Counted from the first letter of the stretch, positions 21,363-53,165 are shown. The stretch is 64,000 bases of DNA from Candidatus Woesebacteria bacterium (GCA_018060845.1 JAGOVG010000001.1:15222-79221), one strand, 5' to 3'. Translations and numbers: made by a program. Notes: a model not told the origin generated them from the sequence alone.

Positions 21363-21926
21363 TTGTGGTATAAAGAAAGTGATATGAGTAATAAACATAA
21401 GTTAAGCACAAGAGACTACATCTTATATCTCTTAAACAAGATAGAACTTGCCAAAGTTGGAAAGATCAGACTTAACAAACTCGCATTTTTTGTTGAGTTT
21501 GGGTACATATATAAGACTGGTAAACAGTTGTCGGAAACAGAATACGCTGGAATTAACCTAGGTCCTGTTATTAACGACTACCGCAAGATCCTAGCACAGA
21601 TGGAGAAAGATGGTGATGTGAAGATGGAAGGCGATAGGATCGTACCGTTGAAAAATTCGAACTTAATACCAGATGAAGTTAGGGTTGTGATTGATCCGCT
21701 GATTGCACGATTTGACGCTCAGCCAGATCGGCTGCTGGTAAGCATGTCCCATGCCACCGATGCTTACAAAATAACAACTATAGACGAAAAAGTTATGGGC
21801 AAGATAATCGATAAATCACTAGCACCACTTGAGACTGCTTTCTTCGATGAAAAAACTATAGTGGAAGACTTACAAGATCTGCCAAGTATCAATAGAAATA
21901 AGTTGGTTCCGTATGAGTTTGGATGA
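21363..21926 (+). CDS. Panacea-domain (DUF4065/SocA-like) putative antitoxin
   Basis: KIRLNKLAFFVEFGY matches the Panacea domain core (LnKLLYfad). Overlaps the downstream toxin-like gene by 14 nt. Confidence 0.68.
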   Translation: MWYKESDMSNKHKLSTRDYILYLLNKIELAKVGKIRLNKLAFFVEFGYIYKTGKQLSETEYAGINLGPVINDYRKILAQMEKDGDVKMEGDRIVPLKNSNLIPDEVRVVIDPLIARFDAQPDRLLVSMSHATDAYKITTIDEKVMGKIIDKSLAPLETAFFDEKTIVEDLQDLPSINRNKLVPYEFG

Positions 21927-28955: not shown

Positions 28956-30608
28956 TTATACCGAGCTATCGTCAGAATCGAGGGTTTCTTTGCTCTGTGA
29001 TAGTGCTTTGTGCCAGTTGCCAATTTTTTCCACTAGCGCGACAAAGACTGTTAGCTCGCGGATTTTGAGGAAGTACGAGAGCGTGATGTAGACACCGATC
29101 CCAATTAGACCAACAGAGAGAGTCAGCATAATAAGAGGTAGCGTGCGGGTAGTGTCAAAGACCATTCTGTCTAGTACGCGCAGAGGCACCCAGAGGGCAA
29201 AGCCAGTGATAACGGTCGAGAGGAGGATTTTGCTGAGTGGGACAAGAAGATCCCGGAGGGAAAACTTGGCGTAGCCATAGAGGATCGCGGTTAAGACAAT
29301 GGTTTCGAGAATGCTCGCGACGGTGATCGCAAACGCCATCCCCAGGATCCCGGCCTGAGCCACAAAGAGAAAATAATAACTAACGCTCACATTAATAATA
29401 GTAGAGAGGAGGTTGGCGATTAGTGGCACTGTGGTGTTGTGGAGCGCGTAAAAAACCCGGACCAAAACGTGGGTGAGTGACCGTGCGGCAATGCTTAAGG
29501 CTAGGATCGCTACTAGCTTGCCAGTTAGGACAGTCTCGGCCCAGGGAAAAGAGTCGGCACCATACGCGAGTCTAACTAGCGGGATGCGCAAAACCAAGAC
29601 TATTGCAGACAAAGGAAGTGCCAAATAGAGCATCTCGAGGATCGTGTGATTGACCATAGTCGAGAGCTCCCCGCGCTCGCGGCTGCTCGCGTTTTTGGCA
29701 AAGAACGGGAGAGAGGCCTGGCCGATCGGCACGCCAATTAGCCGGACTGGCATGGCAGAGAGCTGCTGTGCGATCGCCATTAGGGTGACTGTGCCAGTGC
29801 TGAGCCAGGACGAAAAGGTAACAATAATCGTAGCCTCAATCTGAGTGAGAGAGAGCGTTAGGACCCGCGGACCCATGAGCCGCATCATCTCGGCTACTGC
29901 GGGGGATTTTGGCGAGATAGTTGGGGTATAGCGAAACCCTAGCTGGTGAGCAAGTGGGAGCTGAGCTAGTAGATGTAGTACTGCGCCTAGGACGACACCA
30001 ACTGCGGGGCCGTAGATACCAATGGTCGGACCGAGTACGATAATACCAATGATGATGCCGAGGTTATAAAGTATGGGAGAGAGCGCGGGGATCAAAAAGC
30101 GCTGGTTGGACTGGATGATGCCAGTTAAGAATGAGGAAAAGCCAAAAAAGAGCTGGGCTGCAGCCATGATGCGTGTCAGGTTGGCCATGAGGTCAAGTTG
30201 AGAACTCTCAAATCCCCCAGCGATCACACCACTGAGCGGGCGTGCATAGATTAAGAGGAGGATAGTGAGAACCAGCATGACTAGCATAATCGCATTGATC
30301 ATGGAGCTAGCAAGCCTACTACTCTCACTCTTATTACCTAGATATTTAGAAAATACTGGGATAAAGGCAGATGAGAGTGCGCCCACGATGATGATCTGAA
30401 AAACCATGTCGGGCAGCCTAAAGGCAGCCCAAAAAACATCGAGAACAGCGGTGTCGTTGTAAAAGTAAGTGATTAATAGCCTGGTACGAATTAGTCCGAG
30501 GACAGCGGAAGCTAAAGAGGCCCCCATGATCACTGTGGCTGCCGAGAGGATTGAGCTGTTTTCTTTGACAAAGAGCGACCGGCCATTATTAATTAATCGT
30601 TTGAACAT
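28956..30608 (-). CDS. murJ: Lipid II flippase MurJ (MviN)
   Basis: About 14 TM helices; typical MurJ N-terminus. Confidence 0.82.
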   Translation of the reverse strand: MFKRLINNGRSLFVKENSSILSAATVIMGASLASAVLGLIRTRLLITYFYNDTAVLDVFWAAFRLPDMVFQIIIVGALSSAFIPVFSKYLGNKSESSRLASSMINAIMLVMLVLTILLLIYARPLSGVIAGGFESSQLDLMANLTRIMAAAQLFFGFSSFLTGIIQSNQRFLIPALSPILYNLGIIIGIIVLGPTIGIYGPAVGVVLGAVLHLLAQLPLAHQLGFRYTPTISPKSPAVAEMMRLMGPRVLTLSLTQIEATIIVTFSSWLSTGTVTLMAIAQQLSAMPVRLIGVPIGQASLPFFAKNASSRERGELSTMVNHTILEMLYLALPLSAIVLVLRIPLVRLAYGADSFPWAETVLTGKLVAILALSIAARSLTHVLVRVFYALHNTTVPLIANLLSTIINVSVSYYFLFVAQAGILGMAFAITVASILETIVLTAILYGYAKFSLRDLLVPLSKILLSTVITGFALWVPLRVLDRMVFDTTRTLPLIMLTLSVGLIGIGVYITLSYFLKIRELTVFVALVEKIGNWHKALSQSKETLDSDDSSV

Positions 30609-30686: not shown

Positions 30687-30935
30687 ATGCCAATAACCAA
30701 ATCAGCGATCAAAAAACAAAGAGTCGACAAAAAGCGTTTTAGTGTTAATGCGCCTATCAAAGGACAGGTCAAAAGCACCCTCAAGGCCGCTCGCTCTAAG
30801 CCAACCAAAGAGAGTATTGGCGCGTTCTATACCGCAGTCGATCGCGCAGTAAAAAAGAGCTTAATCCCAGAACGAACAGCTTCTCGCTTAAAATCCAGAT
30901 TGGTTAAGCTAAGTAAGAAAAAAGCCTCGATTTAG
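30687..30935 (+). CDS. rpsT: 30S ribosomal protein S20
   Basis: MPITKSAIKKQRVDKKR...; basic helical protein of 82 aa. Confidence 0.88.
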   Translation: MPITKSAIKKQRVDKKRFSVNAPIKGQVKSTLKAARSKPTKESIGAFYTAVDRAVKKSLIPERTASRLKSRLVKLSKKKASI

Positions 30936-30965
30936 TTTTTTTTGTTATAGTGTTACACTTAAGTC

Positions 30966-31538
30966 ATGCAGCTGCCCGCTTTTTTTGGTCGTCGTCGTGC
31001 GATTAATTTATTACCCAGAGATTCGTTTGAGAGTAGTCAGATTGGCATTGTCCTCGCATGGCTTTTGTCGTTTGGCAAATGGGCAGTCATTGTTACTCAA
31101 CTGATCGTGATGGGTGCTTTTTTGTGGCGATTTTCGCTAGACCGGGAACTTACTGATCTCAAAAAATCGATAGCAAAGAATGTAGCGATAATTAAATCGT
31201 ATGATCAGATTGAGCGAGACTTTGTGCTAACGCAAAAAAGACTTACTACAGCCAAGACCGTAATAAGTCAGCAAAAGGCTATTACCGAAGAACTAGCAGT
31301 ACTCGCCTCCTCGACTCCGGTTGATGTTTGGTACGAAAAACTCACGCTCACCCCGACCTCTACCACTCTCTCGGCATATAGCAGATCTCTACCAGGATTT
31401 AGCCAATTTTTGTCGAGTGTACAGCGTAACCCTAGATACGGCGGGGTGTCTGTTGCCCGGATCCAGGACGGTGGAGCCCAAAATGCTCAGATGCAGTTTG
31501 AGATCAGTATGAACCGAGCTAAGGAGAGTGCTAAATGA
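30966..31538 (+). CDS. pilN: Type IV pilus assembly protein PilN-like
   Basis: N-terminal INLLP motif (RRRAINLLPRD, the PilM-binding peptide), then one TM helix and a periplasmic coiled-coil. Confidence 0.62.
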   Translation: MQLPAFFGRRRAINLLPRDSFESSQIGIVLAWLLSFGKWAVIVTQLIVMGAFLWRFSLDRELTDLKKSIAKNVAIIKSYDQIERDFVLTQKRLTTAKTVISQQKAITEELAVLASSTPVDVWYEKLTLTPTSTTLSAYSRSLPGFSQFLSSVQRNPRYGGVSVARIQDGGAQNAQMQFEISMNRAKESAK

Positions 31539-32209
31539 GTTCGACACGAAGACTACGCTTAGATCTCATGCGTTACTACCGACTACCCTCGGTGCAGGTA
31601 TCTATTGGTGTTGTTCTAGCTTTGTTTATCACCGCTTTCTTTATCATGTTTGCGATCAGACCAACATTTGCAACCATCGTGACACTGCAAAAAACGATTG
31701 TAGAGTCGAGAGAAACGCTCAAATTGCTAGAGACCAAAGTAACATCACTCGGCAAGGCCTCGACACTACTTGAAAAAATCAAACCTCAGCTGCCACTACT
31801 AGATAGTAGTATCCCAGCTAACGGCATGAACTATGATGAGATCTCGTACAGTCTGGAGGCTCTAGCTCAGAACACAGAGACTACTCTCGAGTCATTTACA
31901 CTAGGCAAGTCAATACTATCTTCACGCCTAGTTAGTGCATATGAACCAAGTAAAAAAAGTGAGGTGATCCCGAGTCCTATCACTATCCGAATTAATGGGA
32001 CATATCCACAAGTAGTAGCCTACCTTAGTCGACTCGCGAGTACGATCAGATTAACTAGCATCGAGAGTGTGGCCATTATCCGAGATGGCACTGGCTCTAA
32101 TAAGACTGGGACCGGCGGGCTCACCATGACGATTGGCGGGAGTGTGTATTACATGGGCGACACAGCTGCTATTAACAAAGTACTAACTACTAGCGAGGGA
32201 GGCAAATAA
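31535..32209 (+). CDS. pilO: PilO-like bitopic membrane protein
   Basis: Short cytoplasmic N-terminus, TM, coiled-coil (LKLLETKVTSLGKASTLLEKIKPQLPLLDSSIP). ATGA overlap with pilN. Confidence 0.5.
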   Translation: MSSTRRLRLDLMRYYRLPSVQVSIGVVLALFITAFFIMFAIRPTFATIVTLQKTIVESRETLKLLETKVTSLGKASTLLEKIKPQLPLLDSSIPANGMNYDEISYSLEALAQNTETTLESFTLGKSILSSRLVSAYEPSKKSEVIPSPITIRINGTYPQVVAYLSRLASTIRLTSIESVAIIRDGTGSNKTGTGGLTMTIGGSVYYMGDTAAINKVLTTSEGGK

Positions 32210-32210
32210 C

Positions 32211-32570
32211 ATGGCTCACCGCACACTAGTGATGGTTAAGAGGACATATCTACATGTTGGCGTAATAACGCTATTTACGGCGGTTTTGTGGTTAATCATT
32301 ACACTCTATAACTCGATGACTGCAGTTACCGAGGTAGCAGTTGACGCCAATATCAAATCCCCTATCAATCCCTCATTTGACGAAGCGGTGTTTATGGAGG
32401 TAATAGGACGCGAGAATCTGAGTAGTCTATCATTCGAAGCCCCAGCAAGCAGTGAGAGCGCTGTCACAATAAACGAGATAGTGGTCGCACCTGAGGCGAG
32501 TGAGACCCCGGCTGCTGATCCGACTGTAGAGGATACAACAGAAGTAAATACTGAGGTGGCAACCCCTTAA
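32211..32570 (+). CDS. Small membrane-anchored acidic protein
   Basis: TM helix followed by an acidic, Thr/Glu-rich tail. In the same operon as pilN/pilO. Confidence 0.4.
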   Translation: MAHRTLVMVKRTYLHVGVITLFTAVLWLIITLYNSMTAVTEVAVDANIKSPINPSFDEAVFMEVIGRENLSSLSFEAPASSESAVTINEIVVAPEASETPAADPTVEDTTEVNTEVATP

Positions 32571-32608
32571 ATGTGATAGCATGAAATTATATTAGATAGG
32601 CTCGCTTT

Positions 32609-33961
32609 ATGCTTGGCAAAAAGATCCCCACATTCCTAGCTCTACTCCTCCTCGTCTCTATTGGGATCTGGATCTGGATATGGCAGCGAAACAGAGTGGG
32701 CGTGACGAGTAATGAGATAGTACCCCAATCTGTCAAAATAACTAACATTGCAGATAATAAATTTAGTGTGTCATGGACTACCCAAGCACCAACTGTTGGT
32801 TACGTAGAGTACGGGAGTGTGGGAGAGAAGCTAGACAAACAAAAAGGTGATGACCGTGGCGAGAGCTACGCAGGTCTAACACACCATATTACAGTCACTG
32901 ATTTACAGCCTGCGACCAACTATGCTTTTCGCATACTATCAGGTGAGCGCTCGCAGCGCTTTGACAACAATGGCAGTGTCTATACAGCTCAGACAGGTGT
33001 GACTATCTCTAGTGTGCCAGCAGCCAGGAGTTTGTACGGTAGCGTGAGCGGAGCCAGCGAGGATACGATCGTTTATATTGCCCTACCCGACGCGCAGCCA
33101 GCATCCATTACTCTTAACTCTAGCGGCACATATAGTGTCCCCTTGTCTACTATCCGTAACGGTGACCTCACACAGTTTGTGTCATATGACCCGGCCGCGA
33201 CAATAGTAGCTTTGACACTGGATAATGGGGTCGCCAAATCTGAGGTTAATGTCTCGACCACCAATATTACCCCAGTACCAACTATTGCGATGGGTCAGAA
33301 TGCAGACTATAGAGCAGCACCGGGACAAGAGGAGCCAGTAGTCTCGCAGATTGCCCAGGTGGAGCCACAGACCACTACCACAGAGCCTGTCGCAACCGTC
33401 GAGCCATCACCCACTATGGCTGCACAACCTGTAGAGATCTTTAATGTAGAACCGCTATCCAATCCAGAAATCAATGCAGTGACCACGGGTTCGTATACCC
33501 TCACCAACCCTGCTGTCGAGGGTGAGGTACTATCGACCACCAAGCCAGAGTTTAGAGGGACTGGGGCAGCTAACGCCTCTATCACCATAGCAATTAGCGG
33601 CCAAAAAGCCGTCACTGACACTGTTGTCATTAGTGCAGGTGGCAGCTGGAGCTGGACACCAGCTATTGCGCTATCTTTGGGTAAACAAAAGATTACAGTG
33701 TCATACAAAGACAAAGATGGCAAAGCACAGACAATCGTCCGTAACTTTAGCATTACTGCTGCAACTACCACTAGCGAACCAGCATTTGTCTCGACACCAT
33801 CGGCTAGCACTACGACTACTATTGCAACTGCTTCGCCGCGAACCAACCTCCCCGCGACTGATAGTGGTGTTCCTGTTACTGGAGTAATGACGCCTATGCT
33901 ATTGACGGGAGCCCTAGGGTTTGCCATTATGGTAGTAGGCGCATTGTTACTGGCGCTTTAG
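32609..33961 (+). CDS. Surface protein with an FN3-like domain, Thr/Pro-rich stalk and a C-terminal LPATD-plus-hydrophobic anchor
   Basis: Signal-anchor at the N-terminus. FN3-like block (FSVSWTTQAPTVGYVEYGS...THHITVTDLQPATNYAFRI). C-terminus NLPATDSGVPVTGVMTPMLLTGALGFAIMVVGALLLAL. Confidence 0.6.
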   Translation: MLGKKIPTFLALLLLVSIGIWIWIWQRNRVGVTSNEIVPQSVKITNIADNKFSVSWTTQAPTVGYVEYGSVGEKLDKQKGDDRGESYAGLTHHITVTDLQPATNYAFRILSGERSQRFDNNGSVYTAQTGVTISSVPAARSLYGSVSGASEDTIVYIALPDAQPASITLNSSGTYSVPLSTIRNGDLTQFVSYDPAATIVALTLDNGVAKSEVNVSTTNITPVPTIAMGQNADYRAAPGQEEPVVSQIAQVEPQTTTTEPVATVEPSPTMAAQPVEIFNVEPLSNPEINAVTTGSYTLTNPAVEGEVLSTTKPEFRGTGAANASITIAISGQKAVTDTVVISAGGSWSWTPAIALSLGKQKITVSYKDKDGKAQTIVRNFSITAATTTSEPAFVSTPSASTTTTIATASPRTNLPATDSGVPVTGVMTPMLLTGALGFAIMVVGALLLAL

Positions 33962-33962
33962 G

Positions 33963-35519
33963 TTGATGAATATGACTGACCCAAATACACCAACAACTCC
34001 ATCCAGTAACCCCCAGGATCTCATCGACCAGGCACTTGGTGGCACACCTACCCCAACCATGACACCAGATCCAACACCCACAGTTACAGAGCCCACCCTA
34101 CCTACACCAGAACCATTAAGCGCCCCAGTAGTCGTCGAAGATACTCCTGTACTACCCCCAACCGGGACAGTCCCAACGGAGTTAACTACTACCCCTGTTA
34201 TCCCCACGATGAGTGAGCCACCAGTAGATACCAAACCAATGGGTGAAGATATGCCTCTAGCTTTTGCTGGTATTCCTAACGATGTAGCTGCTGATATTAA
34301 CCTTAACAATGTCTCTGCGCCTATCATTGAACCTGTAAATAACGTAGTACCACCAATCTTGACTAATCCCGCCCCAGCCGCGCCAGTGAATAAGGGTAAG
34401 GGTGCAATGTCTAAGGTTAAGATGGTGATAGTCGCTGCTCTAGCTTTCTTTGGTATTGCTAGCGCTACTGGTTACTGGGCTTACAGTCAGTATGGAACAG
34501 TTAGTCCAGCCATAATCGCTGGTATTAAAGATCAGTCTGAAGATACTTGTAGCGGCTGTGTAAATGGTGGATGGATGAGATGGGACAAAAAGACTGGAAC
34601 ATGTAAGCATACGGGTATTTGTGGCAGTGGAGTGCCAGGAAAAGATACAGAAGATCCTGTCATTGCACGAGCAGAGGACGCAAACAGTCCCACTGCTTGT
34701 TCACAGGCAAAAGGGGTATGGTGTGATAGTACTGATTCTGTTGGCAAACGCTACTCATTCTGTATCTCAAATCAAAGTACTACCGGTTGTAATCAAGCAG
34801 CCATTGATAAAGGGTACACTATAACTTTGGGAAAGGTCCAATGTGAGTGTAAAGATGCAAAGATCGGAACTAATGGATGTCAGAACTGGGGGGTATCTGC
34901 AGAAACACTGGCAGCGATGGAAAGTGCTCAAGTTGGATCAAATACTTACAACCAGAACTTAATGGCTGCCACCTCACAGTGCCAGAACGGAGGTAATTTT
35001 AGCGCGGTCTCGTCAGAAGCGTTTATATGTCCTCCTGGTGTGAGCGGACCTTGTACAGCATTGAACGGCAAACCATTCAAAGGAAACTTGGGTTGTTTCT
35101 GTGGAACCGTACAGGTAGATACTCCAAATGGTCACACAAGCTACAGTTCAACATGTGGCTGTAACAAACCAGAAGAAACTCCCAACCCAACTCCTACCCC
35201 AACTCCATCAGTCCCAGTATTTAGCACCCTAATGTGTTCTAACTTGACTCGAACACCTACCACTACTCCGGTAATTGGTGACAAAGTGACATTTACATGT
35301 GTCGGCGCATCAGTACCTGCCGGGAGCGTGAATCTCAGCTACAAGTTCCGCTATAGTCTAAATAGCGGCTCATACATCAACCTCACTAATAAGACAGCTA
35401 CTACCTCAGAACTATCTATTGCAGCATGTGGAAACTATAGCGTAGAGTGCCAGGCATGTGGCACAATTAATGGAGTACTAACCTGTGATCCTAATTGGGC
35501 AGGAGCAACAACACAATGA
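33963..35519 (+). CDS. Pro/Thr-rich N-terminal region, single TM helix, then a Cys-rich (roughly 30 Cys) extracellular domain
   Basis: PT repeats (TPTPTMTPDPTPTVTEPTLPTPEP), a TM helix (VIVAALAFFGIASATGYWAY), then many spaced cysteines. Confidence 0.5.
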   Translation: MMNMTDPNTPTTPSSNPQDLIDQALGGTPTPTMTPDPTPTVTEPTLPTPEPLSAPVVVEDTPVLPPTGTVPTELTTTPVIPTMSEPPVDTKPMGEDMPLAFAGIPNDVAADINLNNVSAPIIEPVNNVVPPILTNPAPAAPVNKGKGAMSKVKMVIVAALAFFGIASATGYWAYSQYGTVSPAIIAGIKDQSEDTCSGCVNGGWMRWDKKTGTCKHTGICGSGVPGKDTEDPVIARAEDANSPTACSQAKGVWCDSTDSVGKRYSFCISNQSTTGCNQAAIDKGYTITLGKVQCECKDAKIGTNGCQNWGVSAETLAAMESAQVGSNTYNQNLMAATSQCQNGGNFSAVSSEAFICPPGVSGPCTALNGKPFKGNLGCFCGTVQVDTPNGHTSYSSTCGCNKPEETPNPTPTPTPSVPVFSTLMCSNLTRTPTTTPVIGDKVTFTCVGASVPAGSVNLSYKFRYSLNSGSYINLTNKTATTSELSIAACGNYSVECQACGTINGVLTCDPNWAGATTQ

Positions 35520-36397
35520 AACCACTAACCCCTACACTCAAAAAATCTATTCAGATCGGACTCGCGGTATTTGCTGTGATTACGATCTCGCTCGGTGTAG
35601 TTTATTTGGTTAGACAACCATCAACAACCCGCCCCACTCCTACACCATCACCAAAAGTAGCGATGAGCACTACCTCACCTGTTCCGGTCGGAATAAATGA
35701 AGTAATACCAGCAGCAAAAGCAAAATGTTCTCTAACCTTTACCGTCGCTTGTATTGGCTCACCTACACCTTCACCATCAATCTCACCCACCCCCTCCCCA
35801 TCAGGCACGCCTATGGTCTATGTGTCCCCTTCACCATCTACCCCAGCTTCGGCTGACCTAGACTGTGTATCAAAAGAAGTATATGCCGACGACTCTCGTA
35901 ATAGAGCTGGCTTCTACTATCTTGAGTCACGAATAGCTGAGGCATCATCACTAGCCTCTGGCTCGACCATCGTTTACAGCATCATTGCCAAGAACCACGG
36001 TGGATCGACTGTCCCAGATACCAAGATTACCGACACGCTATCTTCTAACCTGACATTTGTTGACTCTGACAGTGACTGTACCTTTGATAGTGCTACCCGA
36101 ACTGTTACCTGTACCATCGGCACACTAGCAGCTGGTGCACAAGCACAGAGATCTATCAGAGCGCGTATTAATGTCTCATCCAACACCTCTATTGCTAACA
36201 CAGCCGAAGTATTCTCTAGTAATGGCCAGCGTAACAGCTGCTCGGTCCAGCTAGATGCAACAGGCAAGATAGTAGTACCTCCATCCCCAGTACCAACAGA
36301 GCTACCTGTAGCAGGTGTGTTTGAGGTGACTGCAGGAACGATCGGAGTCGGAGTAGTCTTCTTAATCCTCGGCGCACTAGGTCTACTACTACTTTAA
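35516..36397 (+). CDS. Surface protein with signal anchor, PT-rich linker, DUF11-like repeat domain and a C-terminal LPVAG-plus-hydrophobic anchor
   Basis: ATGA overlap start (MKPLTP). DUF11-like block (IVYSIIAKNHGGSTVPDTKITDTL...CTIGTLAAGAQ). C-terminus TELPVAGVFEVTAGTIGVGVVFLILGALGLLLL. Confidence 0.58.
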   Translation: MKPLTPTLKKSIQIGLAVFAVITISLGVVYLVRQPSTTRPTPTPSPKVAMSTTSPVPVGINEVIPAAKAKCSLTFTVACIGSPTPSPSISPTPSPSGTPMVYVSPSPSTPASADLDCVSKEVYADDSRNRAGFYYLESRIAEASSLASGSTIVYSIIAKNHGGSTVPDTKITDTLSSNLTFVDSDSDCTFDSATRTVTCTIGTLAAGAQAQRSIRARINVSSNTSIANTAEVFSSNGQRNSCSVQLDATGKIVVPPSPVPTELPVAGVFEVTAGTIGVGVVFLILGALGLLLL

Positions 36398-36519: not shown

Positions 36520-38928
36520 TTACTTCCAGGTAGGAAAGATCTTAAACAAGCTATCCCAGTACTCGGTAGGGAGTGGGTAACCATAGAGCATGGGTGAAAT
36601 TAGGACTAGGGAAATGCAACAGAGCAACAATGCAACATTGCGATATTTGATTGGGAAAGAGAGGAGCCAGCTAGCAAGGATTGGGAGCAGAAAAACGGCA
36701 CTAGGCAAGTAATGATAATAGAACATGATGCGAGGAGAGATGACCCAGGGAATAAAGAGAATAAAGTACAAAGTATAAAGAAGCAAGTATGGGAACCGGC
36801 GAATAAGTGGTAGCTGCAGAATGAGAGCGACCAATCCTAGCCAGAGAATGAGTGGGTTGGCGTGAACATAGATGTTACTTATCACGCCCTCCCCATACTG
36901 CACCCAGTACCACACAGGCCTAGCTCCAAAGATCCATTGCAGCGGTGTGGACTGGTAGCCATGGGTTGCGACCAGTGTCGTGTGGTAATACCACATTTGT
37001 CGGTGCAGCTCCCACCACTGAGCCCAGGTATGACCGGCCAAAATAAAGGGAGCGAACGTCAAAATGTACACTGCAGTAGCAATTAAGATATAGCGTATCG
37101 CAAAGATGAGATGCTTAATATAGTGCATGAAATTTTGCTTTGAAAAGAATGAGTTGTTGTAGCTGTAGAGTAGAGATAACGGAAGAGAACCATAGAGAGC
37201 GCTCCATTTACTACCGAGGGCGAGGCCATAGAGGATAGCGACCATCTTCCATCTAGATTTGACGGCCGCATATAGGGACCAAATATAAAAAGTTAGCATG
37301 TAGCTATCGTTCATCGCAATGCGAGACTGAGCGATATGTGTCCCCTCGATGGTCATCAGGAATGCTGTAAGGAGCGCAAGATTTTTGTTGTTAGTAAGAC
37401 TAGATACAAAGAGGTAGAGTCCTAGGATACCGAGCACTCCCATCACAGCTGAGCCAACACGGTAGCCTAGCTCCCCTTCGCCCAAAACCAACATGCCGAG
37501 GACCATCCCGTATTTGGCAACGGGTGGGTGCGTCCACTCGTAGGCCACGCCCTCGGGCGGCTTGGTCCACCACTCCCATGCTTCGACACGACTGTGCAAA
37601 TATTCTCTCGCAGTAAAGCCATGATAGACCTCGTCAAAGATGTAAGCAGCGGGGTGAGAGAGGTTAACAAAGCGGAGGAGCGTCGCTATGATGAGGATTA
37701 GCATCAGTGACTTATTTGATCTAATAATATTCGTAATCTTTTGGTAAAAATCAGGAACCATTGTGGTTATTAATAGTGATAGCGCGGAGAGCACGGTCGC
37801 ATAAGAACTGATAATAGTGACCCAGATCGGGAGTGGCCAGACTTGATTATTCATCACCCAGGAAAAAGCTGAGTAGAGGTTGAGGATGTAGCAAAGACTT
37901 AAGATTATGTAATGACTAATTAATTTGGGATTATTTATAAGCGCAATGATTAGGAATGGCAATCCAAAGAGAAGATGCCTCTCGTGCATACGAGATGTTA
38001 CGGTATAGAAAATAATGAGAACAAGAGCGCTTAGCTGGTAACTCAGCTTAGGGTCAAACCCTGTCTTAAACCAGGATTTAAATATCAAGAATAGAGAAGT
38101 GAAAAATAAGAATAGTCCAAAGGCATGACCAGAGATACCGAGGAGAGTTAAGTTGTCTGGTACCCAGCTAATGTTACCGGTAATAGTCCAGAGATTCCAG
38201 GCATTAATACTAAGGTAGGGGTAGGTACCAGCCTGCTCGACTGCACGAGAATACATAAAAGAGATTACTTCCCAGGGCATTTTGACAAAAGGCAGTGCTG
38301 TTAAAAAGAAAATGGTGCCAGAGACTAGTGGGAACTGCCATGCCTGCTTCTTTTTGATTGCGACTATCCAGAGGATGGGTGCGATCAGGAGCATGATTGG
38401 CTTGTAAGCCACGGCCAGACCATAGAAGAGTGCAGAGAGCATCGTTGATTTGGTACTTAAGGTTTTTGGTGTGACTAACATCGAGAGTGAAAGCAAGCTC
38501 AGGAGACTCGGGATAGAGTCAACCTGTCCCCAATAAGTGGTGTTGCCAATGGTCGCTGGCGCGAGCAGGAGCAGAGCGATGATCACTTGATTTTTGAGAC
38601 CAGTGGAGCGGATGATAAGAGCTAGGAGCAGGAGCTCGACCACAGTATTGGTTGCTTTAAAGACTAGCGTAAAGTCGAGCGAGAACAATTGACTTAAATA
38701 AGTAGGAAGCGCAAAAGTAAGGATTGGGAGCGGCAGATAATCGGACCAGATACTGCCAAAGAACGCTTGTGGGCCAACTGATAGTAGGTGTGATCCCCAG
38801 GCATGGTATGTACCGATATCATAAGGCTGAGCAGGCAGGGTTAGACCATAGATACGAACGGCTAGCGCGACTACTAGCGTGAGATAAAAAAGATTGAGAG
38901 AACTAAAGATTGTCCGAAACATATTCAT
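36520..38928 (-). CDS. Fused two-module GT-C membrane glycosyltransferase; the C-terminal module is GT39/PMT_2-like
   Basis: More than 20 TM helices. The C-terminal half has YIFDEVYHGFTAREYL and WTHPPVAKYG, the PMT/ArnT-type DE and HPPLaK motifs. Confidence 0.72.
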   Translation of the reverse strand: MNMFRTIFSSLNLFYLTLVVALAVRIYGLTLPAQPYDIGTYHAWGSHLLSVGPQAFFGSIWSDYLPLPILTFALPTYLSQLFSLDFTLVFKATNTVVELLLLALIIRSTGLKNQVIIALLLLAPATIGNTTYWGQVDSIPSLLSLLSLSMLVTPKTLSTKSTMLSALFYGLAVAYKPIMLLIAPILWIVAIKKKQAWQFPLVSGTIFFLTALPFVKMPWEVISFMYSRAVEQAGTYPYLSINAWNLWTITGNISWVPDNLTLLGISGHAFGLFLFFTSLFLIFKSWFKTGFDPKLSYQLSALVLIIFYTVTSRMHERHLLFGLPFLIIALINNPKLISHYIILSLCYILNLYSAFSWVMNNQVWPLPIWVTIISSYATVLSALSLLITTMVPDFYQKITNIIRSNKSLMLILIIATLLRFVNLSHPAAYIFDEVYHGFTAREYLHSRVEAWEWWTKPPEGVAYEWTHPPVAKYGMVLGMLVLGEGELGYRVGSAVMGVLGILGLYLFVSSLTNNKNLALLTAFLMTIEGTHIAQSRIAMNDSYMLTFYIWSLYAAVKSRWKMVAILYGLALGSKWSALYGSLPLSLLYSYNNSFFSKQNFMHYIKHLIFAIRYILIATAVYILTFAPFILAGHTWAQWWELHRQMWYYHTTLVATHGYQSTPLQWIFGARPVWYWVQYGEGVISNIYVHANPLILWLGLVALILQLPLIRRFPYLLLYTLYFILFIPWVISPRIMFYYHYLPSAVFLLPILASWLLSFPIKYRNVALLLCCISLVLISPMLYGYPLPTEYWDSLFKIFPTWK

Positions 38929-39868
38929 TTACCTTGATCCAGCTAGTTTGTGGTATCAGTACCCACTGCCCTGCATATGGAGATAGGTTTTTTGGGTTAT
39001 ATAACTGGTTCTCGATCGTTACACTTTTGATCTCATCAAAGTTTAGACTTAGTCCTAGCTTGGTAAACGAAGAGGCAGCTGACTCATCAATGTCGGTCTT
39101 GATAGAGTCGCTCAATGCCTGCTTGAGTGTTGTGATGCGCTCTGAGTTAAAGACAGTGTTTCTGGAGATTAGGCTCGCAATAAAAGCTCTGATTACTTTT
39201 TGTTGTCTTTTGCTCCGGGCAAAATCTGTCCCCTCGTCCCCTAGCGCGTGGCGAGACCTCACATATTTGAGCGCGGTGACGCCGTCCATTTTTTGGGTAC
39301 CTGCTTCAAAGTGGAGGTGCTCGTAACGATCAGCTTCGGGTTCGACATTTTCTTTGCCTGGGATTGGGTATTTGTAGTCATCAAAAGTCTGGTCGACTGT
39401 AACTGTGATCCCACCCACGGCATCGATTGCTTTGATAAAGCCAGAAAAATCGATGAGCAAACTGTAGTGGATCGGCAGACCCGTTACTTCGGTTAACGCA
39501 GTCTTTAATTTGGATAGGCCAGTGCCAGGCTCTGCTTGGTCACCGTAGTAATAGATGCTATTAATTTTGGCTCGGTACGAAGTGAGGTAGATATCGCGTG
39601 GGATACTAATGAGAGTGATCTTTTTAGTGTCATGATGAACTGAGGCGATCAAGATACTATCGGTGAGCTCTCCCCCCTGGTGACCCTGACCCCCGACGCC
39701 GAGGAGGGCGATGTTGGTGCGAGAGTTCGTAGTTGCTAAGACCTCAATAGGCGGCTGTGTGATGCCGCGCGCATAATCTTTTATATTTTGACTCCGGTAG
39801 AGCCGAGCACCTGCTGCCACTAAGAGCGCAGCTACTAGAGCAGCTAGGATCGGGAGTTTAGCGCGCAT
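38903..39868 (-). CDS. LytR-CpsA-Psr (LCP) family cell-wall glycopolymer transferase
   Basis: N-terminal TM; LCP core NIALLGVGG...LTDSILIASVHHDTKKITLISIPRDIYL. Confidence 0.85.
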   Translation of the reverse strand: MRAKLPILAALVAALLVAAGARLYRSQNIKDYARGITQPPIEVLATTNSRTNIALLGVGGQGHQGGELTDSILIASVHHDTKKITLISIPRDIYLTSYRAKINSIYYYGDQAEPGTGLSKLKTALTEVTGLPIHYSLLIDFSGFIKAIDAVGGITVTVDQTFDDYKYPIPGKENVEPEADRYEHLHFEAGTQKMDGVTALKYVRSRHALGDEGTDFARSKRQQKVIRAFIASLISRNTVFNSERITTLKQALSDSIKTDIDESAASSFTKLGLSLNFDEIKSVTIENQLYNPKNLSPYAGQWVLIPQTSWIKVNEYVSDNL

Positions 39869-40550
39869 GTCCTACCCTGATGAGTATCTCGTTTAGACTA
39901 TTGGGGTCTAGGCTCGCGGTCGCGACTAGGACGCCGTCGATCGAAGTAGTTAGGAGTGAGTCGATATTGTCGGGTGTGACACTGCCACCGTACAGAACAG
40001 GGGCACTAGTATAGCGGCGGATCATGGTGAGTGTATCTTCGATGACATCAGCAGGAGCCGCGACAGTCCCGCCAATATCGGCCGGTGGCTCAAAACAATA
40101 TATACAATCGTTTTGAATACCATCATCTAGTGCAGCAAACTGAGGCTCGATATCCTCACGAGAGAGGCAGATCGCGGGAGTAATGCCGGCAGATAATAAC
40201 TCCTTGGCTTTGTTGGCAACATCTGTCATAGTCTCGTGGAAGTAGCGCCTGCGCTCAGTGTGACCAACTAGACCATATTTAATACCATATTCTTTGAGCT
40301 GAGTAGCATTGACCGCGCCAGTATAAGAGCCGGGGGGGAATGGGGAGACGTCCTGGGAGCAGAGGTTGATTGGATATAGGTTGTGACCTATATGATAGGA
40401 GGTCTGTGCTAGGTGGATGGTGCTAGGTGCTACGAGGAGCGAAACTTTATCTTTAGACTCTGTTATCACAGGATTTACAGTTTTTAGCCAGGATTCGACC
40501 TCTGCACTCGTTTTGTGTGACTTAAAGTTAGCCAAGACAATGAAGTTCAT
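39858..40550 (-). CDS. tpiA: Triosephosphate isomerase
   Basis: NFKSHK; active-site region GHTERR (GHSERR type); EPPADIGG (the catalytic Glu loop, EPxWAIGTG equivalent); GGSV. Confidence 0.85.
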   Translation of the reverse strand: MNFIVLANFKSHKTSAEVESWLKTVNPVITESKDKVSLLVAPSTIHLAQTSYHIGHNLYPINLCSQDVSPFPPGSYTGAVNATQLKEYGIKYGLVGHTERRRYFHETMTDVANKAKELLSAGITPAICLSREDIEPQFAALDDGIQNDCIYCFEPPADIGGTVAAPADVIEDTLTMIRRYTSAPVLYGGSVTPDNIDSLLTTSIDGVLVATASLDPNSLNEILIRVGHAR

Positions 40551-40561
40551 ATGTAGTACTA

Positions 40562-42568
40562 TTGTACCTTATGCATACCTACCTAGACGAGCTAAACAAA
40601 GAGCAGAGGCGAGCGGCCGAGCATCTAGGTACGCCACTACTCATCCTGGCTGGGGCGGGGAGCGGCAAAACTAAGACACTCACCTACAAGGCGGCACACC
40701 TCATGCACTCTGGTATTGTGACCCCAGAGCAGCTACTACTCGTTACTTTTACAAATAAGGCAGCTGGAGAGATGAAGGAGCGGGTCAAAAAAGTAGCTGG
40801 AACATACCTACCAAATGTCGGGACTTACCACTCATTGTCTGCTCGAATACTACGAAGGCACGGTGACGCACTAGGGATTGGTCATGACTTTGTGATCTAC
40901 GATGACGGCGACCAAGAGGACTTGGTTAAGCAGATCCAGGGTGAGTTATCGCAGGACCCCAAGAGATTTAAGTCACGTAGCATCATGAGTATGATCAGCT
41001 CGGCCAAACAAGAAATGGTAAACCCAGAAAATTATCGAAGTATGGCTCGTGGACCTTTTCAAGAAGCGGCGGCTGCAGTTTACTCTAAGTATCAAAAATA
41101 CTTAAGGGACTATACGGCGGTAGATTTTGATGACCTACTATCACTAACCGTTGAGCTACTGCAGAAACATGAGCACGTAAGAGATAACTACCAGAACCTG
41201 TTTAAAGCAGTGTTTGTGGACGAGTATCAGGACACCAATACCACACAATACCTGTTAACTAAGCTCCTCGCAGCCAAGGCTGAGCTGACAGTGGTTGGGG
41301 ATGCGTCGCAGTCGATCTATAGATGGCGTGGGGCAGACTATCGTAATATGACCAAGCTAAAGTCGGACTTCCCTACTCTCACCGAGATTAGACTAGAGCG
41401 TAACTATAGGAGCACCCAAAATATCTTAGATGCGGCAACAACGGTCATTGGCCATAACAAAAACCATCCCATCCTGTCGCTCTGGACCGAAGCTGGGGCG
41501 GGCGAGCCAATAGGACTTATCGAAGCGTATTCGGGTAGCGACGAGGCGAGCCGGATCGTTGAACTAATACTGAATATGGTCAACGGGCGGACGCAGGGGT
41601 CCGCCCCTACAAGATGGAATGATATCGCTTTACTTTACCGCACCAACGCACAGAGCCGAGCGATCGAAGAAGCGATGATTAGGAGCAGTGTCCCGTATAC
41701 CTTGGTTGGGGGGACAAAGTTCTATGAGCGCAAAGAAATAAAAGATTTACTTGCATACCTACGAATCCTCTTAAACCCTGCTGACAAAGTTAGCTATACC
41801 AGAGCCGAAAAAGTGGGTAAGAGGAGACTGGCCATGCTCATGGCAATCAGCGAAACTATTGATGTAGCTAAGACTCGGCCTAGTGATCTGCTTGAAAAAG
41901 TAATAGAGACAACCAAATATTTGGACCAGTACGACGAGGATGACCCGGAGGAGCTATCGAGAATTGAGAATATCCGGGAGCTGCAGGTGGTAGCTGAAGA
42001 GTTTGAAGACCTGCCAGCGCTCCTAGAGAATGTGTCCCTTGTACAATCAGAGTACTTTGCCGGAGAAAAGGGCAAAGACAAAGCTAACTCAGTGACCCTC
42101 ATGACGCTGCATGCAGCTAAGGGACTAGAGTTCCCGATCGTGTTTTTGATAGGAATGGAAGAAGGACTGTTCCCCCACTCCCGAGCGCTCATGGATCTAG
42201 AGGAGATGGAAGAGGAGCGGAGACTCGCCTATGTAGGTATCACGCGTGCCAAAGAAAAACTATATATTTCATATGCCAAACAGAGGACAGTCTGGGGTAA
42301 TACTGGTTTTCAAACTAAGTCGAGATTTATTGATGAGATCCCCGCCAACTTGATTCAGAATGTCGGACAACCAGAAAACTCAGAGGGTCGGAAAGTCGGA
42401 GAACCAGTTAACCAGATAAAGAGTAAAAGTGAGAAGGATTTTTGGGTATCGCATGGAGCGCAGTTTAAGACAAAAAAATCCGGCGTCCGGATAGACAGTC
42501 TTAATGACTCGACACTAGATGATTTTCTATCGGGTAATTTGAGTATTGATGAACTGCTGAATCGTTGA
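40562..42568 (+). CDS. pcrA: UvrD/PcrA-family SF1 DNA helicase
   Basis: LNKEQRRAA...AGAGSGKTKTL (motif I), VDEYQDTN, TLHAAKGLEF, VGITRAK. Confidence 0.9.
   Translation: MYLMHTYLDELNKEQRRAAEHLGTPLLILAGAGSGKTKTLTYKAAHLMHSGIVTPEQLLLVTFTNKAAGEMKERVKKVAGTYLPNVGTYHSLSARILRRHGDALGIGHDFVIYDDGDQEDLVKQIQGELSQDPKRFKSRSIMSMISSAKQEMVNPENYRSMARGPFQEAAAAVYSKYQKYLRDYTAVDFDDLLSLTVELLQKHEHVRDNYQNLFKAVFVDEYQDTNTTQYLLTKLLAAKAELTVVGDASQSIYRWRGADYRNMTKLKSDFPTLTEIRLERNYRSTQNILDAATTVIGHNKNHPILSLWTEAGAGEPIGLIEAYSGSDEASRIVELILNMVNGRTQGSAPTRWNDIALLYRTNAQSRAIEEAMIRSSVPYTLVGGTKFYERKEIKDLLAYLRILLNPADKVSYTRAEKVGKRRLAMLMAISETIDVAKTRPSDLLEKVIETTKYLDQYDEDDPEELSRIENIRELQVVAEEFEDLPALLENVSLVQSEYFAGEKGKDKANSVTLMTLHAAKGLEFPIVFLIGMEEGLFPHSRALMDLEEMEEERRLAYVGITRAKEKLYISYAKQRTVWGNTGFQTKSRFIDEIPANLIQNVGQPENSEGRKVGEPVNQIKSKSEKDFWVSHGAQFKTKKSGVRIDSLNDSTLDDFLSGNLSIDELLNR
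41585..41611. repeat. GC-rich palindromic element, copy 2, embedded in-frame inside the pcrA coding sequence
   Basis: GGGCGGACgCAGGGGTCCGCCCcTACA. It encodes the NGRTQGSAPTRWN segment just before the conserved LLYRTNAQ motif. Confidence 0.6.
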
Positions 42569-50763: not shown

Positions 50764-53163
50764 TCATTCTGACCATAAATTAGATAAAAGTAAATCTACT
50801 TTTTGCTCATATATTTCAACTAGTTGTCGCACGTTATCGACTAACATATATTCTGAATTAATATTTTTAATTATTTCGATTTGAGTTTCAGCCGAGGGAA
50901 AAGGTACTTCAATATCTTCTATTTGAGATTTACTTATTGAATCAAATACTGCACCTCCGTTTCCTACTATTTCCTTTTCAATCATTTTCAAATATGTAAA
51001 TAAAAACATCTGATTTATCTTTATTGGTTTTATTGCTGCCAGACCTCTCCCTATACAGATTTGTTCTGTAGTAATGTTTACGGGTCCAACAGGTGCTCGA
51101 ACTGACATCAGAATATCACCCTTATCTGCAACCTTAGATGTTTTTGTAGTCCACTTCGTAGGCTTCCGTAGATAGACATCTCCAAATTCTGTTTTGCCTT
51201 GATAAAATGCCATCCCTTGCTCAGAATCGTTATAATACTTTCCTTCTGGTGATTGGCCTGCAATAACATTAGCAACTTCGTGTAATTTGACTTTATTCCA
51301 AAGCTTATTAATTTCTATACTAGGTTTCCAATTATTTTTTATTAGCAGAGCCCCATTTATAATTTTCTGATAATTATCTATCTTTGCAACGATTTGATCC
51401 TGAATTTCAATTGATGGTAAGGGTATATTAAACTGTCCTAAATCACTAGTTTTCATTGTTACATTTGCTGCTCCACTCATCAATTTCGCCATTTCCTTCT
51501 TAACACTATTTAATACGTAATACAGGTATTTAGTATTCAATTGGCTCGCATCAATGGGCACTAGCAGAGCTAATAAATTAGCAAGAGCAAACTTTCCTGT
51601 TGTGTAATGTATCCTCTTTATATCGGCTTTCCCGTGTCCCGTTGCGGAAATTAGAGGAACAGCAACTCCTTCGCCCTCAAAATCAAAATGATCTGATGAT
51701 TTTATTATTTCTGCAGTTAAATATAATTTGTATGGACCATTTTCAGTTTTAGTGCTTGATGACTTTCCTTTTACTATTGTGCAAATTTCCGCTAAAGGTA
51801 CATACTTAATATCTGTACTTACAACATCTCTTTTTTTATATTTTAATAATGAAAGATTATAGTTATTATTTATTATTTCTTGTTTATTTATAATTGAAGA
51901 TAAGTGATTAGGTTTGATTTTCGTACTACTTTGGTAAGCTTTAATTATTTTGAGAGCAACTTCTAAATCGTTTTCTTTTATAATTTTTTGAGTTGCGCCT
52001 AGACTTACTCCAGTGCTATGGATATCTATAAATATAAGGTTGTCATTCAGATTATTAAGAGCCTTATCAAAAACTAATATAGAAGTTTTTACTCCTGAAT
52101 ATGGTTGAAATACTCCACTTGGAAGACTAATGACAGCATACAATCCATCATTAATAAGATTTTTACGTAACTCAGTATGGGATTTTCCAGTTTGGAAAAT
52201 AATACCTTCTGGAACAATAATTGCAGCTCTCCCGTTTGGCTTTAAATGATTCATTATGTAGTCAACAAACAATACCTCTGAACGACTAGATTGAATACTG
52301 AATTTGCTGTGTGGAGTAATTCCTCCTTTTGGAGACATGAAAGGAGGATTGGCTAAGATAACATCAAACTTATCATTCCAACGTTCATCTTGTGACAGTG
52401 AGTCGTACTGAAATATTTTTGGGTTCTTAAATTGATGAAGATACATATTTACCTGAGCTATACGGACCATCCCTGGATCAATATCATATCCTTCAAAGTT
52501 ACCCATCATTTTCCTGCGCTCGTCAGGTGTTAGCGCTTTTTCTTTCTTATCTGGATCATTTTTCCCATCATGCTTCTCAAGTATGTGAAGGAAGGATTTG
52601 ATTAAGAATCCTCCTGTCCCACAAGCTGGGTCTAGCACCTTATCATCCTTAGTTGGATTTACAACATCTACCATGAAATCAATAATGTGTCGTGGAGTTC
52701 TAAACTGTCCGGCGTCCCCTTGACTAGACATGATTGAAAGTAGATATTCGTAGGCATTGCCAAGCTCTTCTGGATGAGAGTAATCAAAGAATCCTATTTC
52801 TTTAAGAAATAGTCCTAGTGTTTCTGGTGAACGATATGGTAAAAATGCAGATTTGAATATGCCTCTAAATAACTCTGGGAGCTGTTTAGATTCGGAGAAC
52901 TTAACTAATGCCTCGGCATATAAATTCATTCTCTCCTGATTACCGAGCCGTGAGTCCATAATTCTAGTCCATGCGTATTTCTCTAGGTCACCGACAAAGA
53001 AGGCTGGCTCTCCACCTACTTTCACCGAAGCTTGATCTATATCGTCCATGAACTTGTAGATTAGAGCAGTAGTGATTTGATCAATCTGAGATGTCGGATT
53101 GGGAACCACCCCTACAAGCACTTGTCGTGCCGCGTCTATATGTCTTTTAGTGTCTGTATTCAT
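50764..53163 (-). CDS. hsdM: Type I R-M fused methyltransferase-specificity subunit (HsdM-HsdS fusion)
   Basis: HsdM_N helices, motif I DPACGTGGFL, motif IV ILANPPF. Two HsdS-type TRDs follow, each ending in a conserved spacer helix (LPLPSIEIQDQIVAKID; VPFPSAETQIEIIKNINSEY). Confidence 0.85.
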   Translation of the reverse strand: MNTDTKRHIDAARQVLVGVVPNPTSQIDQITTALIYKFMDDIDQASVKVGGEPAFFVGDLEKYAWTRIMDSRLGNQERMNLYAEALVKFSESKQLPELFRGIFKSAFLPYRSPETLGLFLKEIGFFDYSHPEELGNAYEYLLSIMSSQGDAGQFRTPRHIIDFMVDVVNPTKDDKVLDPACGTGGFLIKSFLHILEKHDGKNDPDKKEKALTPDERRKMMGNFEGYDIDPGMVRIAQVNMYLHQFKNPKIFQYDSLSQDERWNDKFDVILANPPFMSPKGGITPHSKFSIQSSRSEVLFVDYIMNHLKPNGRAAIIVPEGIIFQTGKSHTELRKNLINDGLYAVISLPSGVFQPYSGVKTSILVFDKALNNLNDNLIFIDIHSTGVSLGATQKIIKENDLEVALKIIKAYQSSTKIKPNHLSSIINKQEIINNNYNLSLLKYKKRDVVSTDIKYVPLAEICTIVKGKSSSTKTENGPYKLYLTAEIIKSSDHFDFEGEGVAVPLISATGHGKADIKRIHYTTGKFALANLLALLVPIDASQLNTKYLYYVLNSVKKEMAKLMSGAANVTMKTSDLGQFNIPLPSIEIQDQIVAKIDNYQKIINGALLIKNNWKPSIEINKLWNKVKLHEVANVIAGQSPEGKYYNDSEQGMAFYQGKTEFGDVYLRKPTKWTTKTSKVADKGDILMSVRAPVGPVNITTEQICIGRGLAAIKPIKINQMFLFTYLKMIEKEIVGNGGAVFDSISKSQIEDIEVPFPSAETQIEIIKNINSEYMLVDNVRQLVEIYEQKVDLLLSNLWSE

Positions 53164-53165
53164 AT

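Follow-up and report, generated by a model that had tools for sequence, protein, structure and literature searches.

A candidate initiate-and-extend O-glycosylation enzyme that joins a GT39 and a compact GT-C module in Candidatus Woesebacteria

Introduction

Protein O-mannosylation in actinobacteria and mycobacteria is divided between two enzymes: the GT39 protein Pmt moves the first mannose from polyprenyl-phosphate-mannose onto Ser/Thr residues of exported proteins, and the GT87 protein PimE elongates the O-mannose chains to di- and trisaccharides (PMC12757957). The usual targets, in Cellulomonas and mycobacteria, are PT/ST-rich linkers, and GT39 protein O-mannosylation in bacteria has been treated as an essentially actinobacterial trait (PMC12757957). 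Here we describe a gene from a 64-kb stretch of DNA of Candidatus Woesebacteria bacterium (GCA_018060845.1 JAGOVG010000001.1:15222-79221; referred to hereafter as the window, with coordinates counted along the whole stretch) whose 802-amino-acid (aa) product appears to hold both kinds of module in one chain, a GT39 module in its C-terminal half (C-half) and a compact GT-C glycosyltransferase module in its N-terminal half (N-half). The gene is the last of a minus-strand trio that begins with tpiA and continues with a gene for an LCP (LytR-CpsA-Psr) phosphotransferase. The pairing of GT39 with GT87 in actinobacteria rests mainly on one genetic study, and our literature searches found nothing on PMTs of the Candidate Phyla Radiation (CPR)/Patescibacteria, on LCP proteins together with glycosyltransferases in CPR, or on GT39-GT87 fusions.

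An earlier note on this DNA had read the trio as a glycolytic isomerase co-transcribed with envelope glycosylation enzymes, and had proposed a dedicated module for O-glycosylation of surface proteins; its observation is partly confirmed by the analysis below, and its interpretation partly supported.

Results

Architecture of the 802-aa protein

The features of the trio, all on the minus strand, are as follows.

39858-40550, minus: tpiA, triosephosphate isomerase, 230 aa, first gene of the trio (Pfam TIM)
38903-39868, minus: LCP (LytR-CpsA-Psr) phosphotransferase, 321 aa, with an N-terminal membrane anchor (PF03816, TIGR00350)
39170-39664, minus: LCP domain, aa 69-233 of the 321-aa protein (Pfam PF03816)
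37735-38928, minus: N-half of the 802-aa protein, aa 1-398, predicted compact GT-C of the ALG3/ALG6/PIG-M/PimE (GT87-like) kind
36520-37734, minus: C-half of the 802-aa protein, aa 399-802, predicted bacterial-type GT39 without MIR (Pfam, Foldseek)
37051-37701, minus: Pfam PMT region, aa 410-626 of the 802-aa protein
36526-37026, minus: Pfam PMT_4TMC region, aa 635-801 of the 802-aa protein

Profile, sequence and structural comparisons converge in placing the C-half, as predicted, among the bacterial-type GT39 PMTs. It matches Pfam PMT (PF02366) at 49.4 bits (cut-off 22.7), PMT_4TMC (PF16192) at 46.3 bits (cut-off 32.4) and PMT_2 at 38.6 bits, and a phmmer search of the PDB returned only Pmt4 of Chaetomium (9i5k, 1.6e-7) and yeast Pmt1 (6p25). 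The alignment with Pmt4 sets IFD432E433VYH of the C-half on VFDEVHF, DE on DE, in the first extracytoplasmic loop, and the PMT_4TMC block WWELHRQMWYYHTTLVATHGYQSTPLQW aligns strongly with Pmt4 residues 551-620. An AlphaFold2 (AF2) model of the full-length protein (pLDDT 88.4, pTM 0.84; 42 homologues) has Pmt4, Pmt1 and Pmt2 at all of ranks 1-7 of a Foldseek search of the PDB (best E 5.4e-10, TMt 0.66), with AglB/OST/PglB lower at ~1e-3 and ArnT at ranks 19-21 with ~7e-3. We therefore rejected an assignment of the C-half to ArnT/GT83, the outcome that the earlier note had named as contrary to its reading: no ArnT sequence in the PDB was matched at E<=1, the sequence matches there being to Pmt4 and Pmt1 alone, and ArnT stands low in the structural ranking.

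Conservation falls on the residues expected of a PMT. D432, E433, H467, D541 and R733 are invariant in the 42-sequence alignment; among 111 homologues D432, E433, H467 and D541 are at least 95% conserved, and the stretch T466-H-P-P-V-A-K472 (HPPVAK = 467-472) is invariant or nearly so. In Streptomyces coelicolor Pmt the active-site residues are D113, H159, D233 and R510 (PMC12757957). The 74 residues between H467 and D541 equal the spacing of H159 and D233, the remaining spacings being different, and by this spacing H467 and D541 may be the equivalents of H159 and D233. Pfam found no MIR beta-trefoil in the C-half, where ~8 residues lie between PMT and PMT_4TMC, and bacterial GT39 enzymes normally lack MIR (PMC12757957).

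The N-half (aa 1-398) escapes the curated libraries, so that database names for proteins of this kind cover the C-half only: it has no Pfam match even at E<=10 and no DE/HPPxAK motif, and NCBIfam gave nothing relevant for its family. Its AF2 model (pLDDT 93, pTM 0.92; 21-sequence alignment) found mycobacterial GT87 PimE (9dm5/9dm7) as best Foldseek match in the PDB, followed by ArnT, ALG3, PIG-U, ALG6 and glycosylphosphatidylinositol (GPI) mannosyltransferase I. Given the structural matches to PimE, ALG3, ALG6 and PIG-M, the modelled N-half has a compact GT-C glycosyltransferase fold and is not a transporter, the second outcome that the earlier note had regarded as contrary to its proposal.

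Relatives of the N-half extend this picture by sequence. Pfam GT87 (PF09594) is matched by 5/21 close homologues (best 1.4e-6) and 38/74 distant stand-alone relatives (best 2.6e-10), and is the commonest Pfam match in the family, ahead of smaller numbers to PMT_2, Alg6_Alg8, PIG-U and ALG3; the orthologue from a Daviesbacteria locus (L012:4680-6008) scores 31.6 bits against a cut-off of 25. A profile of close homologues gave no useful match to PDB sequences, and a profile of the wider family reached ALG6 (4e-13) and PIG-M (6e-11). This wider profile aligns the invariant D37 column with the EL1 Asp of ALG6 ‘YGDFE’, which we take to be the catalytic base D69 (numbering offset unconfirmed), and the invariant H315-E316 of an HE(R) motif with the ALG6 ‘HE’.

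The invariant residues of the N-half include D37, W61-x-D63-Y64, K91, W133-G-Q135-x-D137, K176-P177 and R313-M-H-E-R-H318. The first juxtamembrane helix of PimE bears the catalytic base, D58, at its tip, and the phosphate is bound by K195, H321 and H322 (PMC12041525). The N-half has D37 where helix 35-51 of our model begins, a position that would suit the role of D58, and its likewise invariant K176 and H315/H318 may take those of K195 and H321/H322. Even in stand-alone relatives at 22-31% identity, D37, K176 and H315-E316-R317 remain invariant or nearly so.

The ‘double GT-C (PMT/GT39-like)’ enzyme of the earlier note is accordingly half retained. Profile classification of the two halves gave PMT, PMT_4TMC and PMT_2 for the C-half and no Pfam or NCBIfam match for the N-half; the DE...HPPxAK signature that the note had ascribed to the protein is present in the C-half (D432-E433, HPPVAK 467-472) and lacking in the N-half. 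Duplication of a GT39 enzyme was rejected as the origin of the protein, since the N-half is without PMT motifs and belongs to a different GT-C group.

Fusion and adjacency of the two modules

The two modules recur together well beyond the window. Clusters at 90% identity with the fused ~800-aa architecture number more than 100, and most carry the label Woesebacteria or Microgenomates. Among the loci of relatives that we compared with the window (numbered L0xx), those of Daviesbacteria type carry the modules as split, adjacent and slightly overlapping genes (409+419 aa in L009, 404+425 in L010, 442+400 in L012, where the first gene matches GT87 above cut-off, and 399+400 in L025), or fused, as in L008. 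A profile of the N-half found 6568 cluster representatives at E<=1e-3 among 1.84 billion proteins; of the best 150 we compared 146 with a profile of each half, and ~80 proved to be stand-alone proteins of ~400 aa, ~45 had the N-half followed by a PMT, always in that order, and 5 were N-N tandems. That the two modules are repeatedly fused in one order, and lie side by side elsewhere, is strong comparative evidence for a shared pathway. The association between the two GT-C modules is also the only universal one at these loci.

Some database proteins of 444-488 aa appear at first to be a C-half on its own; we rejected these as separate genes. P0104, P0110, P0113, P0114, P0118 and P0120 (P#### labels denote database proteins) all start at ‘MHERH’, corresponding to the internal Met314 of the N-half, and are gene calls that have been truncated or frameshifted; for P0110, which lies on a 258-kb contig, a contig end does not account for the truncation. 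A rearranged version of the module was seen in L006 (7096-9500), where the gene after LCP encodes a 400-aa PMT alone and two further GT-C genes (one with a weak PMT_2 match, one with a weak GT87 match) lie downstream on the opposite strand.

Organization of the trio

The three open reading frames (ORFs) of the trio, the last at 36520-38928, have boundaries and starts identical to those of public NCBI gene calls for the same contig (GCA_020049755.1, JAHZTO010000034.1, 226.7 kb). The overlaps described in the earlier note hold in the ORFs, these gene calls and the junction sequences alike: tpiA and LCP share 11 nucleotides (nt; 39858-39868), and LCP and the 802-aa gene share 26 nt (38903-38928). 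At both junctions the downstream ATG lies within the final codons of the upstream gene, with a purine-rich, Shine-Dalgarno (SD)-like stretch just 5' of it. A consensus scan inside the trio found no excess over shuffled sequence of promoter-like sites (5 versus 7.4) or terminator-like sites (4 versus 3.1). The trio may be transcribed as one operon, and the arrangement suggests that the 802-aa gene is translationally coupled to the LCP phosphotransferase and tpiA.

Overlap of this kind is weak evidence for a functional link, since overlaps are common in the window: four other same-strand junctions overlap by 1-4 nt, p518/DUF11 by 25 nt and lepA/murJ by 68 nt. The last of these (28956-29023) probably reflects a lepA TTG start called too far upstream.

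On the outer side of tpiA, the divergent neighbour of the trio is uvrD, which starts on the plus strand at TTG 40562 or ATG 40571, 11-20 nt from the tpiA ATG at 40550. With so small a gap, the tpiA and uvrD promoters must either lie inside each other's coding regions or give mRNAs with a very short leader or none. Upstream of tpiA (40540-40575) we saw a TACAAT hexamer whose end is 10 nt from the ATG, and no SD; a small tpiA-uvrD gap (21-50 nt) also occurs in L013-L016.

tpiA and the LCP phosphotransferase

The tpiA product matches Pfam TIM (PF00121) at 154 bits (5.3e-45), and its best PDB match is the 223-aa TIM 7r9b (1e-27), the alignment with which places the catalytic motifs ANFK (N8, K10), GHTERR (H97) and FEPP (E153). 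The 321-aa protein opens with a hydrophobic N-terminus (MRAKLPILAALVAALLVAAGA) and scores 117 bits (9.4e-34; cut-off 24.6) against PF03816 and 95.9 bits (cut-off 62.3) against TIGR00350. It has 18 LCP matches in the PDB, including BrpA, Cps2A, TagT/U/V and MsrR, and stretches TDS, PRD, RSR and RSKRQQ line up with these homologues.

Conservation of the locus among relatives

The trio sits in a recurrent block (femAB<-uvrD<- / ->tpiA->LCP->GT-C / <-DUF11<-p518<-fn3/Big_13<-small ORF<-pilO<-pilN(<-rpsT) / ->murJ) that is kept from 94% down to 40% GT-C identity and is also found in L018, where the N-half is only ~29% identical. In L019 uvrD and the LCP-GT-C pair are kept and tpiA is missing; at the Daviesbacteria-type loci (L008-L012, L025) neither tpiA nor LCP adjoins the GT-C pair, whose neighbours, where scanned, are miaA and an AI-2E transporter. 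LCP thus adjoins the fusion in one large Microgenomates/Woesebacteria clade only, and this clade-wide association is inseparable from inherited synteny, uvrD and femAB being kept to the same degree.

Within this block tpiA is the most dispensable member. The tie between tpiA and envelope glycosylation drawn in the earlier note is not supported by these comparisons, and the association carries little meaning; the simplest account is that a compact genome has packed tpiA into the operon as a passenger gene. We also considered a functional link, such as supply of dihydroxyacetone phosphate towards glycerol-phosphate for a teichoic-type polymer, and set it aside as unlikely: L019 has LCP-GT-C without tpiA, and mixed-function operons are common (rpsT, for example, lies 30 nt upstream of pilN in the window).

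Two fused homologues outside the block have neighbours of their own. A GtrA_DPMS_TM gene (L021:6807-7190) lies directly downstream of a 1213-aa fused homologue, and in L022 (4609-6955) pilM-(pilN)-pilO follows the fused homologue directly on the same strand, an arrangement different from that of the window.

Candidate acceptor proteins

Facing the trio across a short gap is a plus-strand operon, given here for context, with no claim that its genes are members of the system.

30966-36397, plus: pilN, pilO, a 119-aa ORF, fn3/Big_13 protein, 518-aa protein and DUF11/CLIPPER protein (Pfam)

The earlier note had called the trio divergent from this operon, which is incorrect: with the operon ending at 36397 and the 802-aa gene stopping at 36520, they converge tail to tail. 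The note's remark on composition is borne out. The highest Ser/Thr/Pro (STP) fraction in any 40-aa segment is 0.57-0.70 for four proteins, the three encoded at 32609-36397 and the product of 16255-17373, versus at most 0.45 for the other 41 ORFs; the last three proteins of the operon (fn3/Big_13, 518-aa and DUF11) have STP-rich linkers, with maxima of 0.57-0.65. The 16255-17373 product, encoded 20 kb from the GT-C gene, is membrane-anchored, with an STP-rich linker after the membrane segment.

An N-terminal anchor is present, along with STP-rich linkers, in both the fn3/Big_13 protein and the DUF11 protein, DUF11 being the ‘CLIPPER’ isopeptide-bond domain (PMC12617251). Their C-termini carry LPxTG-like motifs, [LIMA]P[AS]TxSG...TM and LP[VQE]AG...TM respectively, which are conserved in orthologues and are possibly sortase-type or related sorting signals. 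In the window they read LPATDSG... (33830-33961) and LPVAG... (36290-36397), each followed by a hydrophobic tail without basic residues at its end. Such STP-rich exported proteins are plausible acceptors for the 802-aa enzyme.

Taken with rpsT (S20), the plus-strand genes at 30687-36397 (rpsT, pilN-pilO, the 119-aa ORF and the three surface proteins) look like an extended type IV pilus assembly operon, and the same arrangement is conserved in relatives (L015, L018). In L004 (8415-14176), a pair resembling p518 and DUF11 is tandemly duplicated downstream of the GT-C gene.

Three other regions of the window may be recorded. At 5281-7559, a further pair of envelope genes consists of a YkuD L,D-transpeptidase gene and an ORF of 388 aa, STP-rich (0.28) and unmatched in Pfam, with an overlap of 4 nt. 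A type I restriction-modification system (50764-55742), in which the R subunit follows a methylase with fused specificity domains, lies in the part of the window with the lowest GC (0.34-0.41 versus ~0.47 elsewhere) and was probably acquired horizontally, and a SocA/Panacea-domain antitoxin-like gene (21363-21926) lies in a low-GC stretch (20-22 kb, GC 0.40).

Discussion

We favour, with moderate confidence, the explanation that the 802-aa protein is a bifunctional enzyme that initiates and extends protein O-glycans, encoded in a conserved envelope operon with LCP and with tpiA as passenger. The two-module enzyme would work at the outer face of the cytoplasmic membrane, where its GT39 module would draw on a polyprenyl-phosphate-sugar to place a hexose, most likely mannose, on Ser/Thr of Pro/Ser/Thr-rich linkers during export, and its N-half would lengthen the glycan by one or more sugars from the same kind of donor. 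One chain would thereby hold the initiating and extending steps that actinobacteria divide between Pmt (GT39) and PimE (GT87). The LCP enzyme would most likely move a lipid-linked glycopolymer to peptidoglycan, a surface protein being the less likely acceptor, and tpiA would be a normal gene of glycolysis that happens to share the operon. Sugar, donor, protein acceptors, order of action and co-transcription are what we infer from these comparisons; a lipid-phosphate-sugar donor and Ser/Thr-rich exported acceptors can reasonably be expected, given that the C-half is of PMT type, that the N-half has a glycosyltransferase fold and that the pair matches the Pmt and PimE pathway. The GtrA_DPMS_TM gene after the fused homologue in L021 and the STP-rich exported proteins with anchor signals nearby lend support to protein glycosylation.

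Several observations weigh against this explanation. Pfam searches over the 45 ORFs of the 64-kb window found no GT2/Ppm1-like polyprenyl-phosphate-mannose synthase, GtrA flippase or sortase. The C-half scores 41.1 bits against the actinobacterial Pmt equivalog NF058602 (cut-off 800), over profile positions 35-193 only, which marks it by sequence as a distant GT39 member rather than an orthologue of a characterised enzyme. The N-half encoded in the window has itself no Pfam GT87 match, and the solved structures nearest to it (ALG3, ALG6, PIG-M, PimE) are all of enzymes that act on lipid-linked glycans; ALG6 transfers glucose, and these enzymes establish neither the sugar of the N-half (mannose or glucose) nor a protein-linked acceptor. 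In the 518-aa protein the STP-rich stretch at the N-terminus comes before the single predicted membrane segment, which has a Lys-rich flank, and this stretch is probably cytoplasmic. Finally, the operon partner LCP points towards a cell-wall polymer.

This last point is the starting place for a cell-wall glycopolymer pathway, in which the GT-C modules would build or decorate a lipid-linked (undecaprenyl-pyrophosphate) or wall-linked polysaccharide on the outer membrane face, much as MptA/MptB, Emb, Aft and PimE act on mycobacterial lipoglycans and arabinogalactan, and LCP would ligate the product to peptidoglycan with no protein acceptor. Overlap or adjacency of LCP and GT-C holds down to ~30% N-half identity (L018, L019), even without tpiA; the best structural and sequence relatives of the N-half all act on lipid-linked glycans; the locus is surrounded by cell-wall genes (FemAB, MurJ, the YkuD L,D-transpeptidase); and further GT-C genes lie near in L006 and L025. 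The C-half, however, carries the GT39-specific PMT_4TMC and matches PMTs far better than ArnT, Aft or Emb, and we know of no characterised GT39 that does not glycosylate protein. The GT-C pair moreover occurs without an LCP neighbour in Daviesbacteria-type and other lineages, and uvrD and femAB are as well conserved beside the unit as LCP, whose adjacency may be inherited synteny. We regard a wall polymer as unlikely, though it is the alternative to which we give the most weight. Very doubtful, by comparison, is the proposal that the N-half is a non-catalytic GT-C-fold scaffold, akin to PIG-U in the GPI transamidase and giving the PMT half a dimer partner within its own chain. The PMTs of eukaryotes act as dimers, PIG-U chains rank near the top of the structural matches, 9/74 relatives match Pfam PIG-U, and the full-length pTM of 0.84 suggests a fixed arrangement of the halves; yet D37 is invariant and aligned to the ALG6 EL1 Asp, K176 and H315-E316-R317 are invariant or nearly so in distant relatives, and the ~80 of 146 representatives that stand alone at ~400 aa fit an enzyme in its own right.

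Two further proposals keep a protein acceptor and tie it to the neighbouring operon. In the dedicated module of the earlier note, the trio would glycosylate the adjacent pilus-linked STP-rich proteins, and LCP might add a lipid-linked glycan before sortase-type anchoring, for which the glycosylation of the wall-anchored protein GspA by Actinomyces oris LcpA offers a precedent (PMC6381275). The tail-to-tail arrangement with pilN-pilO...DUF11 is present in every locus of the clade, to 40% identity, and in L018; a fused homologue lies directly upstream of pilM-(pilN)-pilO in L022; and the STP-rich linkers and LPxTG-like C-terminal signals of the neighbours are conserved. These features hint at such a module and go no further, for convergent genes are not co-transcribed, the whole block (uvrD, femAB, murJ, lepA) is syntenic, which makes neighbourhood weak evidence, and in other lineages the GT-C pair lies beside miaA and the AI-2E transporter with no pilus genes. 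An STP-rich membrane protein 20 kb away suits a general enzyme, and the window search found no sortase; we consider a dedicated module improbable. A little less probable still is a CPR-specific O-glycosylation system, in which an initiating and an extending GT-C module together with the co-transcribed LCP would build and attach glycans on sortase-type anchored, pilus-associated proteins, the GT-C modules forming a covalent pseudo-heterodimer that mimics eukaryotic Pmt1-Pmt2 and LCP placing a lipid-linked polymer on the protein-bound sugar and not on peptidoglycan.

Comparison with known systems

Among described LCP enzymes (TagT/U/V, Cps2A, Lcp1 and A. oris LcpA), the canonical LCP domain and N-terminal membrane anchor are shared with the 321-aa protein; the window's LCP differs in being coupled translationally, as its overlap suggests, to a GT39-type enzyme, for which we found no described precedent. 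ArnT (GT83) has in common with the C-half a GT-C fold, a polyprenyl-phosphate-sugar donor (predicted for the C-half) and a Pfam PMT_2 match, but is without PMT_4TMC, gives no PDB sequence match and is a far weaker structural match (~7e-3 versus 5e-10 for Pmt4). The eukaryotic enzymes ALG3, ALG6 and PIG-M of the endoplasmic reticulum lumen extend lipid-linked oligosaccharides or GPI, whereas the module in the window is bacterial and tied to a PMT.

The closest parallel is the actinobacterial pathway. The Pmt enzymes Rv1002c of M. tuberculosis and SCO3154 of S. coelicolor share with the C-half PMT and PMT_4TMC, the absence of MIR, and the DE and HPP motifs, at ~550 aa versus ~400 aa; PimE is the top Foldseek match of the N-half, itself a predicted compact GT-C whose relatives match GT87 more often than any other family; and the PT/ST-rich linkers of actinobacterial substrates resemble the likely substrates in the window. 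The differences lie in gene linkage and host: actinobacterial Pmt and PimE genes are unlinked, whereas here the modules are fused or overlapping and adjacent, and the host belongs to CPR/Microgenomates and not to the actinobacteria. A distant GT39 is widely present in CPR/Microgenomates, and its recurrent fusion offers ‘Rosetta-stone’ evidence, independent of the actinobacterial work, for cooperation between a GT39 initiator and an extender of the compact GT87/ALG-like kind. We see in this a predictable variation on a known pathway, revealing no new kind of system; the locus would provide a compact construct for coupled initiation and extension, and points to glycosylation of surface proteins in the envelope of uncultured episymbiotic bacteria.

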